A stretch of DNA of 64,000 nt, taken from the NCBI GenBank assembly GCA_021780615.1, contig JAJXYJ010000022.1, forward strand, positions 809 through 64,808, in the 5' to 3' direction. This document shows positions 2,382 to 52,562 of the stretch, in pieces (the stretch's first letter is position 1; each line of letters starts with the position of its first letter). The DNA comes from a bacterium. GTDB taxonomy: Bacteria; Patescibacteriota; Minisyncoccia; UBA6257; JAGOQP01. The notes beneath the pieces were generated by a model. That model was not told the DNA's origin and made no database searches. It worked only from the letters and a program-made list of their open reading frames with translations. Position numbers and translations under genes: made by a program.

Positions 2382-3064
2382 AACACTTTAATCCCCCTGA
2401 ATCCTTTGTACCTCCCTTCCACCCCTTCTATCTGCGGACCAAAAAAATCAAGTTCGTAACCGGACAAGACTGACCGCCACCACTCCTGTGTACGCACATG
2501 CCACATAAGATGGTGATGTTCAATGCCCCACGGTTCACTAAAGCCAAGAATGCTTCCTTTGGGAGCTGACCGCAACACGGCACATATTTTCAAAACCTCT
2601 TCATCGCGCAAATGAGCAAAAACACATCCGGTAAAAAAGGCCGCCGGCTTATCAATCTTCTTCATAAGGGCGGCAAGCTGTTCTTCGGCAAATCCCTGTA
2701 TCCAATGAATGTTCCCGAATGCAGCGCCTGTATATATCTTACGTGCAATAATAATCGCTGCATCGGACGGCTCAATGGCATACACATCTTTAAAATAGCG
2801 GCTTAACTCTGCCGATAGCCAGCCCGCACCCGATCCGATATCAATAGCAATATCTCTATGATTTGGGTACATTTCTAAAAGATCTCTGAATTTATTCTCA
2901 GGACCATTGAATAGATCCTCGCGCTTATATTTTTCTGCCGTCGCCTTTTCTACGGCAAGCTTGCCCTCCTCTTCATACTCGGCATTGTGGCGCTTGTAGC
3001 TGCTCTTTTTTCCCTGAAAAAAGCGCGAAACAGTGTCTCGAATGAATATCTTTATTAGTTTCAT
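2378..3064 (-). CDS. Class I SAM-dependent methyltransferase
   Basis: IDIGSGAGWLSAELSRYF...VYAIEPS is a glycine-rich SAM-binding motif I. There is a 4-nt overlap with the flanking genes. Confidence 0.55.
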   Translation of the reverse strand: MKLIKIFIRDTVSRFFQGKKSSYKRHNAEYEEEGKLAVEKATAEKYKREDLFNGPENKFRDLLEMYPNHRDIAIDIGSGAGWLSAELSRYFKDVYAIEPSDAAIIIARKIYTGAAFGNIHWIQGFAEEQLAALMKKIDKPAAFFTGCVFAHLRDEEVLKICAVLRSAPKGSILGFSEPWGIEHHHLMWHVRTQEWWRSVLSGYELDFFGPQIEGVEGRYKGFRGIKVL

Positions 3065-41763: not shown

Positions 41764-42741
41764 TTAAAAGTTTATATGGAGATGACGATTTCCTGAAGCG
41801 CTATCGACAATATGCTGGCCAACGGTACTGCTCGTTGTATAACATGTTGTATGACCACATACAGAATTATCAGTGGTTGTAAACTCGTAATGCGGATCAG
41901 CACCGATGCTCTTAAAATAGTTAAAAATGTTTTGCCAACTCGCTAACGTACCAGCATTGGACGTAATATCAGCAGCCGAACCATTGTAATGATTTGATGT
42001 TGCCGCATGAGATCCTCCTGTTAAACTTGATACGGTAAAATTGTCAACGCCACCAGTCTTTCTTGCTTGTTCAGCAGTAGTTAATTTTTTTAAAAGATTG
42101 TAGGTTAGCGTAACCGTACCACTTGGCCCTCCTGCAGTACACGAACAATCAGGAGAACATACGTAAGGATATCGCCCCATAGAGACATCTTGCATAATAG
42201 CTCGGGGACTCGATTCTGCAACACATGTCGCAGAAGAACTCAATCCATCCCCCCCTTTAATGGCAAGATATTTTAATGCAAGTTGTGATTCTTGTGTATC
42301 AGTATTGGTAGTACTTGAGGGGGGAACTCCCGTTGTTCCCAGTCCCGTCGGCGTCGGTGTAACAATTTGAACCTGTGTTAACCCTGGATTTTTAAGAACC
42401 GTCAACGTCGGATTAATAGTATTTAAAATAAGAAATGCACCTCCCAAAAGCACAATCCCCCACACCGCACTCTTAATAATTTCTGTCGCATCCTTTTGAG
42501 CAGAGCTATTACCGCCAGTCACCACATACTTAACGCCCCCATACACAATCATAACCACCGCAAGCGTTCCAGCGATACCAAGCGCATACATATAAATATT
42601 ATTAACCAAACTTGCCGGATCAGTTGAGTTGGCAAACGAAGGAAGTCCTAAATCATAGGCATGTGCAACGAGAGGAGAAAAGAACGTTGTTATAAAAGAA
42701 AGGGTGTGGGAAAATAAATACATAGTTAAGTAATAATACAA
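41764..42741 (-). CDS. Membrane protein with a VirB2/TrbC-like two-helix N-terminal region and a C-terminal peptidase M15 (VanY/LAS-type) zinc peptidase domain. It is a probable cell-wall hydrolase of the T4SS-like cluster.
   Basis: Signal/TM region ...AHAYD; two hydrophobic helices separated by a short loop (ALGIAGTLAVVMIVYGG...AVWGIVLLGGAFLIL). C-terminal SNHYNGSAAD fits the M15 S-x-H-x-x-G-x-A-x-D motif, and the terminal HLH supplies the third zinc ligand. Confidence 0.45.
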   Translation of the reverse strand: MYYYLTMYLFSHTLSFITTFFSPLVAHAYDLGLPSFANSTDPASLVNNIYMYALGIAGTLAVVMIVYGGVKYVVTGGNSSAQKDATEIIKSAVWGIVLLGGAFLILNTINPTLTVLKNPGLTQVQIVTPTPTGLGTTGVPPSSTTNTDTQESQLALKYLAIKGGDGLSSSATCVAESSPRAIMQDVSMGRYPYVCSPDCSCTAGGPSGTVTLTYNLLKKLTTAEQARKTGGVDNFTVSSLTGGSHAATSNHYNGSAADITSNAGTLASWQNIFNYFKSIGADPHYEFTTTDNSVCGHTTCYTTSSTVGQHIVDSASGNRHLHINF

Positions 42742-44076: not shown

Positions 44077-45834
44077 TTACACCAACCCCTCCTCTTCTCC
44101 TAAAAGTTGCTGCGGCTTGGTGGTAATAATTTTATCCTCAAAATACGAAGCGACCACTTGCATGGCTACGTGCTTCAGACCGGCAAAAAAGAGTCCTTGC
44201 CCCACCCCTGCCTCGAGCAACAAATTCTTTTCCGCTTCAGTTAAATTAAATGTTTTTGCCACCGTATCGATAGTTGCGGGAGATTGTTTTAAAAGCAACT
44301 GCAACGATGAGTTGGTAATAATAGGCTTGCCGTAGGGGGAATTCATAAAATCATCAACTTCTTGCGTAATCGTTGAAAGTCCTAAGTAGTACTTGCGTCC
44401 GCGCTTTGCAAGACCATACAGAAACGCCGCACCCTCAGGATATTTCATCATCACCCAGGCTTCATCAATAACCAAAATGCGCCGCTTTAACTGTGACCGC
44501 ACCAGGTTCCAGATAAAATTCAAAATGACATACATCGCGATCGGACGCAGTTCATCCTCAAGATCGCGAATAGAAAATACGATAAGACGATTATTCACGT
44601 CAATGTTCGTTTTTTGATTCACAAATCCGGCATAACTTCCCTGAGTAAATTTATACAATCGCTCAGCCAAGGAACGCCCTCCTTCCATATTTCGCAACAC
44701 CGTCTCAAAATCAGACAAAAGAGGTGGTTCCATCTTTAAGAAATTAGGATTGTCCGGCGTAATATCATAGGACGCATATGTTTCGGTCAGCGCGCGATCA
44801 AGCAGCGACTCTTCTTCCACACTAATCTCTCCTAACATAATTTTAAGCAATCCGGTAAGAGTTAAAATGTGTGACTTAAAAACGTCGGCAGGATCTTCAC
44901 CCTTGGGAACCATAGGAATATCAAACGGGTTAATGTGCTGATCAGAGGTAAGGGATATTTTAAAATAGGTGCCACCCACCGTATCACTAAGATTTTTATA
45001 TTCATTTTCAGGATCGATAACCAATACGTCAGTACCGATCATAAGTGAGCGCAGTATTTCCAGCTTTGTCGCATACGATTTTCCACCACCTGATTTTGCA
45101 AAAACAACCTGATTCGCATTTTCCAATGAAAATCGATCAAAAATAACCAAAGAATTATTATGCAAATTAATGCCATAGAGAATGCCGCTCTCGCTGGTTA
45201 AATCCATTGATACAAAAGGGAAAAAAGAAGAAACCGGACCCGAATTGAGTGGTGTGTGTATACCGAGTTTATCCTGACCCAAGGGAAGCGTGGAAATAAA
45301 TCCATCGACTTGCTGAAAGAGTGCCGGTTTTACATAAATAAGCTTGCTCTCAAAGAGGTTAATAATCATTTCTTCAAGCTCATTGATCTTTTCAATGGAG
45401 TCTCCGTACACCGTAATGTACACCCCCACATCAAAGAGGCGCTCCTGAGCCTGTTGCAGATTGTCCCGCAGAGATTCAATGTCATTAAATGCTGTCTCTA
45501 ACATAGGATCGCGCACAAACCCTTTGTCTTGTCGATCAATAACCTCAGCTTCTACCTGTGCCGCCTTTTTACGCAGATTTCGCAACGCCAGCGCGGTATC
45601 AACGGGATGAATAAAAATGGATATGTCAAAAAGTTTTGACAAATTAATAATAGGAGAAAACCAGCTACTGGAAAGATAGCGTGGATATGAAAAGATAAAA
45701 AATGTTTTTGAATATTTATCTCCTATTTTGACGTAGTTTTGACCAACCTCAAGAGCGGCGGGAGCAATGATATTTTTAACCCCTCCTCCTTGCTCATCGA
45801 TTTGATTATTGGATGTGTGTGTAGTGTCTGACAT
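44077..45834 (-). CDS. Type IV secretion VirB4/TraC-family ATPase, C-terminal ATPase portion
   Basis: Walker A FAKSGGGKSY. Walker B ILVIDEAW. CagE/TrbE/VirB domain organisation. Length is 585 aa. Confidence 0.8.
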   Translation of the reverse strand: MSDTTHTSNNQIDEQGGGVKNIIAPAALEVGQNYVKIGDKYSKTFFIFSYPRYLSSSWFSPIINLSKLFDISIFIHPVDTALALRNLRKKAAQVEAEVIDRQDKGFVRDPMLETAFNDIESLRDNLQQAQERLFDVGVYITVYGDSIEKINELEEMIINLFESKLIYVKPALFQQVDGFISTLPLGQDKLGIHTPLNSGPVSSFFPFVSMDLTSESGILYGINLHNNSLVIFDRFSLENANQVVFAKSGGGKSYATKLEILRSLMIGTDVLVIDPENEYKNLSDTVGGTYFKISLTSDQHINPFDIPMVPKGEDPADVFKSHILTLTGLLKIMLGEISVEEESLLDRALTETYASYDITPDNPNFLKMEPPLLSDFETVLRNMEGGRSLAERLYKFTQGSYAGFVNQKTNIDVNNRLIVFSIRDLEDELRPIAMYVILNFIWNLVRSQLKRRILVIDEAWVMMKYPEGAAFLYGLAKRGRKYYLGLSTITQEVDDFMNSPYGKPIITNSSLQLLLKQSPATIDTVAKTFNLTEAEKNLLLEAGVGQGLFFAGLKHVAMQVVASYFEDKIITTKPQQLLGEEEGLV

Positions 45835-45855
45835 ACGTGTTATATACCTATCATG

Positions 45856-46545
45856 TTATGACTGTGTGCTCGGCGAAGTGCCGACTGCCGAAACAGATTC
45901 TTGTGAGGGAAGCTTTTTTTCTATCGCCTCGGGATTATACAAATTATAATACAGCTCAAGAAGCTCCTCATCGTTTAACGAAACCGCTCGCAAGCCAATC
46001 CGTTCAAGACCATTCAACACTTCATCAACGCGCTGTTGTAACTGAGCATATTTTTCTTCGTCCGATTCTTCTTGCTGATGTTTATTTTTTTTACCCGCCA
46101 AAAACGGCAGAAAACGGGCGGCACCTTTTTGTAACTCTCGAATGCCCCCACCATCATAAGGAATGACGGCAAAAAACGTTTTGGTCATAATTTCATTCTG
46201 TTTCACAAACCCACGAATAAATTCAATATATTCCGCTGTTTGATTTTTAAGAAGTTCGTTTGTTTCAGCATCACGAACCCCTTCCATTTTATGAAGGTAT
46301 CCACTGATATTTAATTTACGGGAATGAATAACGATTTGAATGGAAAAATCGAGTGCATTTAAAAAATTCTGATAGGCGCTGGTAATACCATCTTGTTCTT
46401 CTTCTGATTTGAGCTCAAAATTAACACCAGCCACCATCACTACCGCCCGCAACCCACCCGTTTTCAAACGAATAACGCCATTTTTTATCTCTTCCACATC
46501 AATGAATTGCTGCGTTGCATTTTGAGGAAATGTTGCTTGTGGCAT
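45856..46545 (-). CDS. VirB4 N-terminal domain-like protein. It is in the same frame as the downstream ATPase ORF, separated by one TAA and 7 codons.
   Basis: VIRLKTGGLRAVVMVAGVNFELKSEEEQDGITSAYQNFLNALDFSIQIVIHSR resembles the conserved VirB4/TraE N-terminal block. 229+7+585 aa is about the canonical VirB4 length. Confidence 0.5.
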   Translation of the reverse strand: MPQATFPQNATQQFIDVEEIKNGVIRLKTGGLRAVVMVAGVNFELKSEEEQDGITSAYQNFLNALDFSIQIVIHSRKLNISGYLHKMEGVRDAETNELLKNQTAEYIEFIRGFVKQNEIMTKTFFAVIPYDGGGIRELQKGAARFLPFLAGKKNKHQQEESDEEKYAQLQQRVDEVLNGLERIGLRAVSLNDEELLELYYNLYNPEAIEKKLPSQESVSAVGTSPSTQS

Positions 46546-46647: not shown

Positions 46648-47172
46648 TCACCGATAATCAATACGCCGCGCAACTTCACGCTCGCCCGTGATACGTCGCA
46701 ATACCTGATATTGCTCTTGGATTTCTTTGATCGATTTTCGAGGAGGTGTTTTTTCTCGTTTAGGTATGGGATTTTTTGTGGTTGTTAAATCTTGAAATAA
46801 TTTTCCAACTTTGGAAAAATCGGGAACGATATCTTTTAAATTTTGTCGAGTATGTTCAACCGAAGGAATGGCTATTGCTTCATGAAGCACAAGAGGACGA
46901 CGCCACAAAAATAATTTTGGTTCCCAAAAAAACTTGAGGCCATACAGGGCAACCATATAGAGCGGCCTCCCGCCAATTTTAATAAACGCAAACGTTGCAC
47001 CAACTGAAAGTAATACGATTGCCACCAAAATCCACACAACAATGTTGAGTACAAAAAACAAAAAGAAGCAAATGAGCGCTGGTAATGCAATGAACGCAAA
47101 CTGCTTCAACGTCAGCGGGCCGACGATTTTACTCTCAAAATCAATAAATTGTGGAACGGTAAACTGAGCCAT
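46648..47172 (-). CDS. PrgI/VirB3-like small membrane protein
   Basis: MAQFTVPQFIDFESKIVGPLTLKQFAFIALPALICFF matches the PrgI-family N-terminal signature (xVPQFIDxExKIxGPLTxKQF). Two TM helices. It lies immediately upstream of virB4. Confidence 0.5.
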   Translation of the reverse strand: MAQFTVPQFIDFESKIVGPLTLKQFAFIALPALICFFLFFVLNIVVWILVAIVLLSVGATFAFIKIGGRPLYMVALYGLKFFWEPKLFLWRRPLVLHEAIAIPSVEHTRQNLKDIVPDFSKVGKLFQDLTTTKNPIPKREKTPPRKSIKEIQEQYQVLRRITGEREVARRIDYR

Positions 47173-47232: not shown

Positions 47233-48240
47233 CTATGAAAGCGGCGTCTTAAATCCCGTATAATTTACCACCTTCGCTTTTTCTTGAATTTGAGGATTAG
47301 GTGCCCCATATTTTTTCACCGTAACAGGAATCTGCTGCGAGGGGGCCACTGGTGATGAAGGGGATTGCGGAGAGGCAGGGGGTTCTTGGCGGAGTATCGA
47401 CGATGACGCATCCCGCTCAGGAAACGGTTGTAAAGGAATTTCAACGCGTGCTCGCGATGCTGGCGCCTGCCGTTGTTGAGAAAAGGCTGTTTTAAAGGAT
47501 CCCATAAAACTGCCATACGACATTGGACGATATGTTTGCTGTGGTGTTTGGCGAACAATGGGCTTTGCCTCACCTTCCGTATGAAGAATAAAAGGCATTT
47601 CTCCTTGAGGTGTTGGAGAAGGAGTGGGTATAGGCTCGGAGGCAACGGGAGGCAAAGGAACAGTGTTTATTGAAATACTTTCTGTGGGCATGGGCGCGGG
47701 AGGGGGCAAAGGAACATCTTGGCGCAACACTAACGGTGCCGCTTCCATGGTGGATATAGTTTCTGGAGAAACAACGGTATCATTCGATGCGGGTATCGGC
47801 TGTTGCTCTTCTTCTTTTTTAAGATTAAGAGATTCGTCAATATGAACAAGCGGATCAGTAATAACCAATTTTTCTTCCAACTGTACATCATCAAATTCAG
47901 GATGAGGAACCTCTTGCATGGCACGACGAAATGATTCTATATCAGCCCGTACTGGCGCAAAAACATCACGATCAACTTGCTGATAAATATCTAACGCTGT
48001 TTTTGCATCAACGCCAATATCGCTCTGGAGAGAATCAAAAAATTCTTTACTTTGAACAAAACCAAGGAGCACAAACATACAAAGCCGCTGTAACGTTCGA
48101 TGCTGTTGCTTGGTCAACACATTATTTTCTCGAAAAGAGTACAGCACATCATCTGTTACAGGAGAAAAAAGCGCCTCTCGAATTGTATCGGGTGCCCTTT
48201 CCCATCGTTCATTTATGTCATGTTGAGGATATGTGTGCAT
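47233..48240 (-). CDS. Pro-rich hypothetical protein
   Basis: 335 aa with PLPPPAPMP and PTPSPTP tracts. Operon member. Confidence 0.3.
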   Translation of the reverse strand: MHTYPQHDINERWERAPDTIREALFSPVTDDVLYSFRENNVLTKQQHRTLQRLCMFVLLGFVQSKEFFDSLQSDIGVDAKTALDIYQQVDRDVFAPVRADIESFRRAMQEVPHPEFDDVQLEEKLVITDPLVHIDESLNLKKEEEQQPIPASNDTVVSPETISTMEAAPLVLRQDVPLPPPAPMPTESISINTVPLPPVASEPIPTPSPTPQGEMPFILHTEGEAKPIVRQTPQQTYRPMSYGSFMGSFKTAFSQQRQAPASRARVEIPLQPFPERDASSSILRQEPPASPQSPSSPVAPSQQIPVTVKKYGAPNPQIQEKAKVVNYTGFKTPLS

Positions 48241-48284: not shown

Positions 48285-50828
48285 TTATTTTCCGCCACCA
48301 GAAGGGGTGGGGGAGGGGGTGGGGGTAGTGGGTCCTTTTTCTTCCTCAGCATAAGAACCTCCGATGACTGATGCAATGCTTTTTTCCATCTTCTTGCCAA
48401 GTGCTTTTATGGATTGCACCCGAGATTTTTGAAGTGTCTCCGCGATAGCGTCCATATCCTTGCCGGCAATATTAACTATAAGCTCAGTCGTGTATTCCTT
48501 TTCTATTTCCGTCTGAGCATCTCGAGCAAGACTCACAAAGAAGTTTTCAAGTTCTTCTTGCGTCTTTAACTTTGATGCCGTTGAATGCATTGCCTTTCCA
48601 GGATCTCTGCGAATTGCCTGAATATATGCATTGCGCACCTCTTCAGATTGTTTCTCGCTCATCCCGCTAATATCTTTATATTTTCCTGTTTCTTTATCAA
48701 GAGAAAAAGCCGATCCAGCCATATTATCGGCAATATCTTTCCAATCTTTTTCAGAAAATCCATTAAAAAATTTCTCTGATTCACTAGCAACTGTCGCGTT
48801 AGGAACCTCTTTTCCATCTTTATCTAAAGCACTTTGTCCTAAAAGAAGGCGTGCCATATTCAGATTCATGCCCCGCTTTTTTTCAATAGATCCCATTTCT
48901 TTAACTCGCCCCATCTTCTTCATATACTCGAGCGTGCTTACCATGTTTTGCGGAGAAATATCTATTCCTCCTATTTTATTCTTATCCGCAAGCATTTCAT
49001 ATGCGGCAACTTGCTGGCTCTTATTAAGAGTTGGTATTAATTTTTTAATCTGATCAGGACTCAAGTCTTTATTCTGTTTTTTAAAATCATCAATGTAAAC
49101 CTGAGACCCTTTTTCAGTCGTTGTCTGTGTGCGAGACATACCACGAGCCAATCCTCCAAAAGCCATTTTCCCCACAGGTCCCTTCGATCCCCATGAGGTT
49201 ATAGTGCTTTGAACACGTTGTCCTGACTTACTCTTAAGCGCCCCTGAGGTGACGCGATCCCTCCCCCATTTTGCACCTGTCTGTGCTTTTGTTTTTGCCC
49301 ACTTTCCCGTTTTATCAGCAAAATTGAGCGCCATCTTTGATCCACCATATCCCATTTTTTGAGCCATCTTAAGTCCACCAATAAGCATGGCAACTGCGAT
49401 AAGTGATGTCATGAGACTTCCAAAGGAAAGACCTGTGTTGAAAAATTGCGTCGCCCCGCTCATCGTAGTAGCAACTTGTTTTGAGTATTGTGAAAATTGA
49501 TTCATTACTGCAATAGATATATATAAGAAGAGCAGTAGTGTTGGGGCGTAGAGTGACCAATGAATAAACGTATCCCACCACTGTTTCCAATATTTATTAG
49601 TACTGGGAAACACCCACATCAACCATACCAGTGGAGCAACAATAAGAAGGAATGAAAGATAAAAATATCGCATAAAAAGCATCCCCGCCATACCAATGAG
49701 CGTCAGAAATATAATAAGACCAAAAACAATAAGTATCACCATCGCAAGCAAGTCTCCTAAGGTGGCTCCAAAAAGATTATGAATAAAATTGGCGGTTGGA
49801 CTATATCCACTTATCATACCCGAAAAACCAAAAGAGTCTCCAAGTTTTGCAACAGCAGTAGAACTCATACCGGGAGTGCCTAAGGGACTTGGACCCGCAA
49901 TAAAACCAAGCAACCACGCTGATATGGAATTAGTTATTTTAATAAAAATACCTCCAATCAAAAGACTAAAGTTAACCAAAAGCGCGGCAATAATAAGTTT
50001 CCATAACAAACTCTGCATCTGATAACTTTTATTGCGTAAAATAGTGGCAATCGCAATAACAATAATTCCCAACACAAATCCAAGATTGGCAATATCACGA
50101 AAAATAGTCCATCCCGTAATAATAAATGGTGGTTGAAAATTTAATATAGAATCATTAAATGAAAGAGCCGCTTGTATAAGGTATCCCGCAAGCGTAATAA
50201 ACGCACTTACAATAATAAGAATTAAATATAGTATTGTCTGAATAACAATTCCCACAAGAGGAATAGGGGTATCCGCAACATTACTCTTAGTATTATTTGA
50301 CGCAGACGCAGTACTATTCAATTTTTGATTCTCCGTACCAATTGCAGCATTAATCGCATTAATACGATCTTGAACCGCTTTTATTTGTGCGGGCGTTGCA
50401 TTATCTGGTAATTGCTGTTGGTCACTTTCCGCCTTTGTAAGTAAGCTTTGTAACCCTGCTTGATCACAATTACTCAAGTGTTGTTCATCACATGGGTTTG
50501 TGATGTTAACATTTTTTTGAGCATTTTCAATAAGCTTGAGTTGATTTATAAAATCAGCCTTTGCTGCTAATTGTTGAGGGGTTCCAGGCGGATTATTTAC
50601 TATAGCAGATTCATTAATTAAAGCCTGTTCAGTAATACTATTATGTAACTGACTTAACTGGTCCGCAGTACACTGATCTAGATGCTGAACATCACAAGAA
50701 GGAGTCGTCTGCGCGGATGCAAACTTTAGCGTACCAAATGTCATAAAAATAATGACGCCAAAAACCGCTACCCACATAAGAATGCGAGCACGGCGAGATG
50801 TATGCATGGTATTAGTAAATAAAGTCAT
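48285..50828 (-). CDS. VirB6-like polytopic membrane protein with an N-terminal secreted Cys-containing domain and a large C-terminal hydrophilic domain
   Basis: 847 aa. Signal/TM, then 8 or more TM helices in the middle, then a Lys-rich C-terminal ~350 aa. The architecture resembles Gram-positive VirB6 homologues (PrgH/TcpH/ConG). Confidence 0.45.
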   Translation of the reverse strand: MTLFTNTMHTSRRARILMWVAVFGVIIFMTFGTLKFASAQTTPSCDVQHLDQCTADQLSQLHNSITEQALINESAIVNNPPGTPQQLAAKADFINQLKLIENAQKNVNITNPCDEQHLSNCDQAGLQSLLTKAESDQQQLPDNATPAQIKAVQDRINAINAAIGTENQKLNSTASASNNTKSNVADTPIPLVGIVIQTILYLILIIVSAFITLAGYLIQAALSFNDSILNFQPPFIITGWTIFRDIANLGFVLGIIVIAIATILRNKSYQMQSLLWKLIIAALLVNFSLLIGGIFIKITNSISAWLLGFIAGPSPLGTPGMSSTAVAKLGDSFGFSGMISGYSPTANFIHNLFGATLGDLLAMVILIVFGLIIFLTLIGMAGMLFMRYFYLSFLLIVAPLVWLMWVFPSTNKYWKQWWDTFIHWSLYAPTLLLFLYISIAVMNQFSQYSKQVATTMSGATQFFNTGLSFGSLMTSLIAVAMLIGGLKMAQKMGYGGSKMALNFADKTGKWAKTKAQTGAKWGRDRVTSGALKSKSGQRVQSTITSWGSKGPVGKMAFGGLARGMSRTQTTTEKGSQVYIDDFKKQNKDLSPDQIKKLIPTLNKSQQVAAYEMLADKNKIGGIDISPQNMVSTLEYMKKMGRVKEMGSIEKKRGMNLNMARLLLGQSALDKDGKEVPNATVASESEKFFNGFSEKDWKDIADNMAGSAFSLDKETGKYKDISGMSEKQSEEVRNAYIQAIRRDPGKAMHSTASKLKTQEELENFFVSLARDAQTEIEKEYTTELIVNIAGKDMDAIAETLQKSRVQSIKALGKKMEKSIASVIGGSYAEEEKGPTTPTPSPTPSGGGK

Positions 50829-50837
50829 TGTAACTTG

Positions 50838-52562
50838 TTATGTCCGTGCCTCACAATAAAATGTATTATCGCCCGGATACATAGGGTATGCGGGAACAGA
50901 AAGTCCGGTTAAAACATTCTGCAACACATTGACTAGCGTTACGGATCCTCCACTGGTCCCTGGCCCATTTCCTGCATTAGCCGCTTGCTGAATCACAGCG
51001 CTTGAAACCAGATCACTATATTGTGTCGTAAAAGTATTAAAATCATTTTCTACCGTACTCAGAAGTTGTGCAGAGGTGGTAGCGCTTTGTAAATCATCGG
51101 GAGTAATCGCCTGCACTACTGCTACATTTTTTTGAGCAATCGGAAGTGCCTGATTAATAGAAGTCAGTAAATCGTTAAAATATCCATTATGTGCAACCGC
51201 TGTTGCTGACGTAGGAAATCCTTGGAGTGGATAAGGAACAAGATCTCCAAGATTTGCATACGCTTGTGTCTTATTTAAATCATCATAGCGCAGATATCCA
51301 TAGTTTGGCGGTCCAATTGCCTGATCGCTCCCCCACGCTTGATTTGTCACAAAGCGATTGAAACAGAATTTTACCGCATTAAGCGCCATGTCATTTCCCT
51401 GTGTCGCCAAATTCTTAAGTGTTGCAAGATAAGAAATGATATTAGTATAGTTTTTTATAACGCCATTAATGGCATTCTGATTTTGTTGTATCTGCTGATC
51501 GCGAGATCCCTGTGTGAGATTTGAGTAATCCAAAGTAACGCCTCCGCCAGAGGATGGACTACTTTGAAGCAACCCCTGGCCGGCATTAAAGACTTTACCA
51601 ATAACCACATTTACCAGGGCCGATATGACACTTTGCACATTGGATGCATAGTCGAAATTACTCAAAACTCCTTTTGTTGCCGCCTGCGCCGCCACTTCTC
51701 CGGGGGTCACTGTTTGGTTCTGCGTACAGTAGGTGCTTTCCATACTTTTCCATTGCGCATCACTGTCTTGTCTGTTACTTGTTCCTCCTGTTTGAGAATT
51801 AACCTGCCATCCCGCATCAAGGAATGCCTGCTCACTATGAAGAGTTGTTCCATCCAAAGGACTCTGCCAAGCAACGCATTGTTTCACATCCAAAAATCCA
51901 TTTGATGCCGCCGCCTCACTTTGTGCCGCTTGTTGATTTTGTGCCGCGGTTGCCATATAGGCATTTTCTAACGTTAATGACATGCCAAAATAATTATTTT
52001 CGGGATAAAACAATTGTTGAAAAGAAAGCCACCCTCCCTTTTGTATGAAATCCTGCGTATTCTTCAAGTTTGCTTGAAAATCCTGATAACGACACTGTAC
52101 AGGAAGCCCTAAATTATTTTGAGCATATTGCGATGCAAATGAAAGTTGTAATTCAGGAGCAAGAGGGGCACACAAATTAACTCCTTGTGTTTTAAGATAG
52201 TTGTTTACCGTATCAAAGGCGATATCTCCTGATTTTGCCAAATACCCTTTCCAATCAGTCACAAAAAGAGGTTTCCCCCCATTTTGAATAGAATTAACAA
52301 TCTGGTTAGTCATATCATCAACGATGCGCTTGACGATTTGATCGCGCAATGTTTTAAGCCCTTCCTCAGCAGCCCATTGAGCAATATCCGCAAGATGACT
52401 TGTTACCAATTGCACAAGCTCTGTTGGATTAAAAACAACCCATTGAGCATTGGTTTGCAAAGGAGAAAACACCATAGTGGCAACAAATATACCCAAGAGT
52501 ACTCCACCAATAATCTGACGAGATGATTCCTTTAAAAAAGTTTTAATAACTTTAGTCAGCAT
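50838..52562 (-). CDS. Membrane-anchored Q/N-rich hypothetical protein
   Basis: 574 aa with an N-terminal TM and a large extracytoplasmic domain. Operon member. Confidence 0.3.
   Translation of the reverse strand: MLTKVIKTFLKESSRQIIGGVLLGIFVATMVFSPLQTNAQWVVFNPTELVQLVTSHLADIAQWAAEEGLKTLRDQIVKRIVDDMTNQIVNSIQNGGKPLFVTDWKGYLAKSGDIAFDTVNNYLKTQGVNLCAPLAPELQLSFASQYAQNNLGLPVQCRYQDFQANLKNTQDFIQKGGWLSFQQLFYPENNYFGMSLTLENAYMATAAQNQQAAQSEAAASNGFLDVKQCVAWQSPLDGTTLHSEQAFLDAGWQVNSQTGGTSNRQDSDAQWKSMESTYCTQNQTVTPGEVAAQAATKGVLSNFDYASNVQSVISALVNVVIGKVFNAGQGLLQSSPSSGGGVTLDYSNLTQGSRDQQIQQNQNAINGVIKNYTNIISYLATLKNLATQGNDMALNAVKFCFNRFVTNQAWGSDQAIGPPNYGYLRYDDLNKTQAYANLGDLVPYPLQGFPTSATAVAHNGYFNDLLTSINQALPIAQKNVAVVQAITPDDLQSATTSAQLLSTVENDFNTFTTQYSDLVSSAVIQQAANAGNGPGTSGGSVTLVNVLQNVLTGLSVPAYPMYPGDNTFYCEART

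Follow-up and report, generated by a model that had tools for sequence, protein, structure and literature searches.

Two neighbouring open reading frames (ORFs) on the minus strand of the 64,000-nucleotide stretch of DNA analysed here (the window) are very probably two separate, functional genes for a split VirB4 of a type IV secretion system (T4SS), and the in-frame TAA between them would be coincidental, with no role in recoding. The upstream ORF (45856-46545, minus strand; 229 aa plus the TAA stop) is a TrsD-like gene, here called the N-piece. The downstream ORF (44077-45834, minus strand; 585 aa plus stop) encodes a VirB4/TrsE-type ATPase, here called the C-piece. The host system would be a chromosomal monoderm-type (MPF-FATA-like) T4SS of a Paceibacteria-class (Parcubacteria / Wolfebacteria-like) bacterium. 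An earlier note on this DNA, titled as a VirB4 split by a "single in-frame TAA", had listed a two-polypeptide VirB4 as in some Gram-positive systems as one of three options. This option is borne out by 78 split loci among the 81 compared and by an apparent end-to-end correspondence to TrsD plus TrsE of plasmid pSK41. The title is misleading on two counts, as the TAA is incidental and the break falls within the VirB4 N-terminal domain, not where this domain meets the ATPase domain.

When the minus strand was read again, the coordinates, the lengths, the shared frame and the separation by TAA plus seven codons proved to have been given correctly. Read directly from the window sequence, the N-ORF closes with ...CAG TCA TAA (TAA at 45858-45856). 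It is followed by a non-coding intergenic spacer of 21 nt (45835-45855, minus strand), CAT GAT AGG TAT ATA ACA CGT at 45855-45835, whose in-frame reading is HDRYITR and which is unconserved in relatives. The ATG of the C-ORF (45834-45832, minus strand) stands directly after these codons. As both ORFs lie in the same frame in the window, the conceptual read-through product has 822 aa. By chance alone, one in three pairs of neighbouring ORFs on one strand would be in frame.

The window uses the standard bacterial genetic code, with TAA as the commonest stop. The stops of its 53 long ORFs are TAA (25), TAG (15) and TGA (13), and the earlier remark that TGA also serves as a stop in the window is confirmed by these 13 ORFs. 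The C-piece start has no Shine-Dalgarno motif. This was considered as an argument against independent initiation of the C-piece and was discarded as uninformative, since even a loose Shine-Dalgarno-like motif is found upstream of only 5 of the 53 long ORFs. Translation initiation in the window appears to be largely Shine-Dalgarno-independent, judging from the same ORFs. Directly ahead of the ATG, several genes show an A-rich, ATAACAC-like stretch; the C-piece (45834) and the genes with starts at 48240 and 28038 are among them. In addition, a mechanically called and most probably spurious ORF of 109 aa (45837-46166, plus strand) runs antisense to the N-piece and across the junction region.

The C-piece matched Pfam PF19044 with an E-value of 6.8e-30 and carries a GGGKS motif, and it has the P-loop (Walker A/B) of a RecA-like, VirB4-type C-terminal domain. 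It also matched the NCBIfam model of the CD1110-family VirB4 (NF045971) with 372.1 bits against a cut-off of 325, over profile positions 173-732 of 752. When compared with the solved VirB4 C-terminal domain (PDB 4AG5), residues 216-571 of the C-piece aligned to residues 9-388 of the structure (E 1.4e-44). The polypeptide does not carry a complete VirB4 N-terminal domain, as it starts at about position 173 of the 752 in NF045971; the first ~170-205 residues of VirB4 are encoded by the separate 229-aa gene. From these matches, the C-piece is predicted to begin with the second half of the VirB4 N-terminal domain and to continue into the RecA-like P-loop C-terminal domain.

The C-piece lies in a T4SS cluster on one strand, with a PrgI/VirB3-like gene upstream and a T4SS_pilin gene downstream. 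The former (46648-47172, minus strand) encodes a small membrane protein of 174 aa (PF12666 PrgI, E 3.2e-6, 28 bits, cut-off 27) and is located immediately upstream of the pair, the same place as that of the small gene before trsD in pSK41. The pilin-domain gene (41764-42741, minus strand) matched PF18895 T4SS_pilin (E 9.6e-10, 38.8 bits, cut-off 26.6). Further upstream in the same-strand cluster are two ORFs of 847 aa and 574 aa (48285-50828 and 50838-52562, minus strand). No significant Pfam family was found for them, only a weak DUF4141 match (E 7.5e-4). Both could be T4SS components peculiar to this lineage, for example VirB6-like or surface proteins.

In the case of the N-piece, the decisive match was a fused VirB4 of 790 aa from a related bacterium (P0006), residues 9-214 of which are 54% identical to the N-piece (E 7e-71). 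This identity settles what the N-piece is. The Pfam and NCBIfam matches were all below threshold, and all of them fell on the N-terminal parts of VirB4 models or on TrsD/TraD. They comprise TraC_F_IV of Pfam (profile 33-173 of 375; 17 bits, cut-off 28), NF045975 (102-231 of 894; E 7e-11), NF045971 (1-111 of 752), TIGR00929 (18-186 of 792) and the TrsD/TraD model NF041427 (29-142 of 201; E 3.2e-7). The last reached 30.4 bits against a curated cut-off of 200, and therefore we call the N-piece TrsD-like and do not count it as a member of this NCBIfam subfamily. NF045971 is tiled by the two pieces, with the N-piece on positions 1-111 and the C-piece on 173-732. A precomputed match to PF26593 (TraC-like) is recorded for a product identical to the N-piece. 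In keeping with a stand-alone TrsD/TraD protein of ~200-230 aa, it stands directly upstream of a VirB4-type ATPase (229 aa, 21 nt away). The N-piece is thereby predicted to be the detached first sub-domain, of about 205 residues, of the VirB4 N-terminal domain. The similarity of the 229-aa ORF to VirB4 N-terminal domains, proposed in the earlier note, holds in that VirB4 and TrsD models were matched and the identity to the fused VirB4 is 54%, with the qualification that the profile scores are sub-threshold.

Two other candidate relationships were rejected. An internal duplication was considered since the order of predicted secondary structure is similar in the N-piece and in residues 1-215 of the C-piece, but hhalign gave it a probability of only 0.2%. 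In a search of the N-piece (45859-46545) against PDB, the only hits were weak ones to cyanobacterial phycobilisome rod-linker proteins (9k9w), with a repeat-summed E-value of 2.6e-4; the E-values per stretch were 50-70 and the matches were judged to be spurious.

The earlier note had put the break at the border of the N-terminal and ATPase domains. It actually lies inside the VirB4 N-terminal domain. About 215 residues of the C-piece precede the part aligned to the solved C-terminal domain, and position ~240 of the C-piece (the Walker A region) corresponds to ~445 of TrwK, the VirB4 of R388, in which the N-terminal domain covers residues 15-400 (PMC9259494). In fused relatives, one continuous TraC_F_IV match (profile ~134-372) spans the junction. 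All breaks in the multiple alignment are located in a short, variable linker that is flanked by the conserved blocks ...ELFYNLYNPE..EK and ..IIAPSALEV... The N- and C-pieces were also joined and modelled with AlphaFold2 from an alignment that included 65 fused homologues. The model, of medium quality (mean pLDDT 72, pTM 0.54), has well-folded units on either side of a stretch with pLDDT <50 at 214-246, with the junction at 229|230. When this model was compared with TrwK/VirB4 in the R388 cryo-EM structure (8rtd_O), the alignment was full-length (E 6e-30, 874 columns). The site of gene fission is thus predicted, from alignment and model, to be a disordered linker within the VirB4 N-terminal domain.

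When the fused sequence was used for searching, two populations of proteins were observed. The first has ~585 aa and 80-87% identity in the C-part only, and the second has ~790 aa and ~60% identity over the whole length. The junctions of 80 species-representative loci (L001-L080) and of the window, 81 in total, were analysed from raw DNA. This alignment of orthologous VirB4 loci, which the earlier note had suggested, showed that the split is conserved at the homologous place in 78 of the 81 loci including the window, with C-piece identities of 55-86%, N-pieces of 203-273 aa and C-pieces of 565-665 aa. Only L018 and L028 are genuinely fused among the 81 loci. L013 was considered as a close fused relative (a recent re-fusion) and was rejected, as a run of X (N-masked DNA, ~2900-3000) lies exactly at its junction. 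Such an N run would mislead automated calls of fused versus split genes.

Adjacency and gene order of the halves are kept in 78 of the 78 split loci. The distance from the N-piece stop to the C-piece start ranges from -17 to +543 nt (median 7) with eight overlapping pairs, and the spacers vary in length and sequence at every locus, so that the seven HDRYITR codons have no conserved counterpart. Three loci have a gene between the halves: PDDEXK_3 / PF13366 in L006 (~2508-2952) and L031 (~2432-2931), and 23S_rRNA_IVP / PF05635 in L035 (~2468-2922). The small families PF13366 and PF05635 appear to be gene-sized fillers of intergenic gaps in these genomes. In four other loci, the spacers have 86-158 nt and are densely filled with palindromic TACGAAT/ATTCGTA-type repeats (L021, ~1227-1312; L022, ~2840-2958; L072, ~2806-2961; L078, ~2753-2910), which could be REP/MITE-like elements or hairpins.

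In relatives the two ORFs may differ in frame, overlap, lie at a distance or have a gene between them, and the halves are therefore made as separate polypeptides from their own start codons. Coupled translation would fit the short spacers that most relatives have; long spacers and inserted genes imply that independent initiation must also work.

Programmed readthrough of the TAA, giving a single VirB4 of ~822 aa alone or beside the short products, would agree with the window itself, where the ORFs are in frame and only TAA and seven sense codons apart, and the existence of fused orthologues of ~790 aa means that a fused product would probably fold. However, the C-ORF is in frame 0 relative to the N-ORF in only 15 of the 78 split loci (+1 in 33, +2 in 30) against 26 expected by chance, and in none of the 14 closest relatives (C-piece >=82% identical). 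Overlapping genes or long spacers are frequent among relatives, neither the spacer codons nor any stop context is conserved across the loci, and TAA is the most ordinary stop of the window. We know of no bacterial mechanism for efficient TAA readthrough. This explanation, the second in the earlier note, is largely refuted by the unconserved frame and by the unrelated genes between the halves in three species, and we consider it extremely improbable, with at most a low level of readthrough conceivable at this particular TAA.

In the remaining option, a normally single VirB4 gene would have been interrupted by a nonsense mutation of recent date or by an error of sequencing or assembly, and the locus would be a pseudogene or an artefact. 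One stop between in-frame halves whose summed length is that of a canonical VirB4 is what such an event would leave, and some relatives are indeed fused (L018, L028 and the ~790-aa proteins). Against this, the split recurs in 77 other species-level genomes, with identities as low as 55%. Compared with its closest split relatives, the window is saturated at synonymous sites (pS 0.74-0.81), yet both ORFs are intact with dN/dS <0.09; in the split state the N-piece has 0.03-0.085 and the C-piece 0.007-0.045. The identical pair of 229-aa and 585-aa genes was also called on a contig of an independent NCBI assembly (GCA_027355965.1), and 5 contigs were found to encode the 585-aa protein. An old and conserved split, purifying selection and an independent contig leave hardly any credence for a mutation or an error. 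Both halves are, from their substitution patterns, evidently functional and under strong purifying selection.

The N-piece evolves about twice as fast as the C-piece (pN ~0.24 vs 0.11). This would suit another explanation, in which the N-piece is an independent accessory protein, or has another stoichiometry or partner, and the 585-aa protein is a self-sufficient short VirB4. TrsD homologues of Gracilibacteria that have no association with virB4 (PMC12102498) also speak for it. However, the fused orthologues, 54% identical in the N-part, indicate that the same module works when covalently attached, and the halves keep their adjacency and order in all split loci. Furthermore, fused and split forms intermingle on a rough NJ tree, which implies that they are functionally equivalent and interchangeable. 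We therefore regard an independent accessory protein as very unlikely.

The tree, drawn from Kimura-corrected distances and midpoint-rooted, shows at least ~5 changes of state when L013 is discounted; it shows interleaving and does not decide the ancestral state. In-frame split pairs are rarer than expected (the 15 vs 26 of 78 given above; binomial P 0.0044, uncorrected for phylogeny), and in L050 and L051 the N-pieces are 93% identical while the relative frame is different. It is conceivable, though we think it rather unlikely, that repeated toggling of the Paceibacteria VirB4 gene between fused and split states at one linker, together with this in-frame deficit, reflects unstable or counter-selected in-frame splits or a tuning of stoichiometry. 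If so, in-frame splits would not last, since a single point mutation turns them back into a fused gene, or would be selected against, or splitting would set different stoichiometries for the VirB3-binding N-module and the ATPase. A parallel to the stoichiometry idea would be R388, in which VirB3 is bound by only half of the VirB4 subunits.

For two separate genes with a split VirB4, a working model can be proposed. In R388, VirB3 wraps around the VirB4 N-terminal domain, which mediates VirB4 dimerisation (PMC9259494). The N- and C-piece polypeptides would reassemble non-covalently into a VirB4-like unit, in which the TrsD-like piece would supply the N-terminal part of VirB4 for dimerisation and would presumably bind the adjacent PrgI/VirB3-like protein. 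The most likely form is a non-covalent complex of the PrgI-like protein, the TrsD-like protein and the short VirB4, which would be equivalent to VirB3-VirB4. For annotation, two genes should be called (a TrsD-like VirB4 N-terminal module and a VirB4 ATPase), not a pseudogene, a frameshift or a recoding event. In this clade, the TrsD family would be a detachable first sub-domain of the VirB4 N-terminal domain, interchangeable with the fused form.

The canonical single-chain VirB4 (TrwK of R388 and the CD1110 family of Firmicutes) is comparable to the window in that the N+C model spans TrwK and the two pieces tile the CD1110 profile. It differs in being one polypeptide of ~750-823 aa, whereas the window has two.

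The closest known arrangement is that of TrsD/TraD and TrsE/TraE of pGO1/pSK41 (the pGO1 subclass of MPF-FATA), where a protein of ~227-229 aa is likewise encoded directly upstream of a shortened VirB4-type ATPase. In pSK41 a small VirB3-like gene is followed by trsD (227 aa) and, after 14 nt, by the gene of the VirB4-type ATPase TrsE (672 aa). When a profile of 75 N-pieces was compared with pSK41 TrsD, hmmsearch gave an E-value of 2.1e-8 in a set of 8 proteins, a significant but remote match. The hhalign comparison of the N-piece profile with TrsD, also remote, aligned 12-205 to 35-217 over 171 columns (probability 75%, E 2.6e-5), including the terminal FYxLYxP/Y motif. The C-piece profile matched TrsE with an E-value of 3e-63. 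From these two matches, the break would be at an equivalent position in pSK41. The link of the N-piece to TrsD appears to be a remote one, resting on E-values, a moderate hhalign probability and synteny. Differences are the identity of only 19% between TrsD and the N-piece, the score of 30 vs 200 bits with NF041427, and the length of TrsE compared with the 585-aa C-piece. Also, pSK41 is a conjugative plasmid with relaxase and coupling protein, while the window has a chromosomal-looking cluster with T4SS pilin-domain genes.

Quinonero-Coronel et al. 2025 (PMC12102498) describe TrsD of Patescibacteria as remotely homologous to the N-terminal portion of VirB4 and as known elsewhere from the pGO1 subclass of MPF-FATA. 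Among the T4SS components recovered by their HMM search in Patescibacteria it was the most frequent, with 2,272 homologues of which 1,664 adjoin virB4, and one homologue is essential in Ca. Southlakia epibionticum; no function was assigned to TrsD (PMC12102498). The name "TrsD" does not occur in the main text of Guglielmini 2014 (PMC4027160), and therefore we cite the TrsD/VirB4 homology only as reported in PMC12102498. No mention of TrsD or a split VirB4 was found in the FEMS 2025 T4SS review, nor of TrsD-VirB4 fused forms or a split VirB4 in the main text of PMC12102498.

The widespread T4SS core of Patescibacteria consists of VirB4, TrsD, PrgI/VirB3, VirB6 and VirB2-like pilins (PMC12102498), and the window resembles it in having PrgI-like, TrsD-like, VirB4 and pilin genes on one strand. 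The split arrangement is thus already described for Patescibacteria and for staphylococcal plasmids, the window is one more instance, and its overall weight is that of a modest refinement of published knowledge and no discovery. Two minor points are added to the main text of PMC12102498: the TrsD-like protein is close to the N-terminus of fused VirB4 proteins, and fused and split states interconvert. While TrsD in Patescibacteria was described as "remote" from VirB4 (PMC12102498), the fused orthologues of this clade are close to it, with the 54% identity in the N-part.
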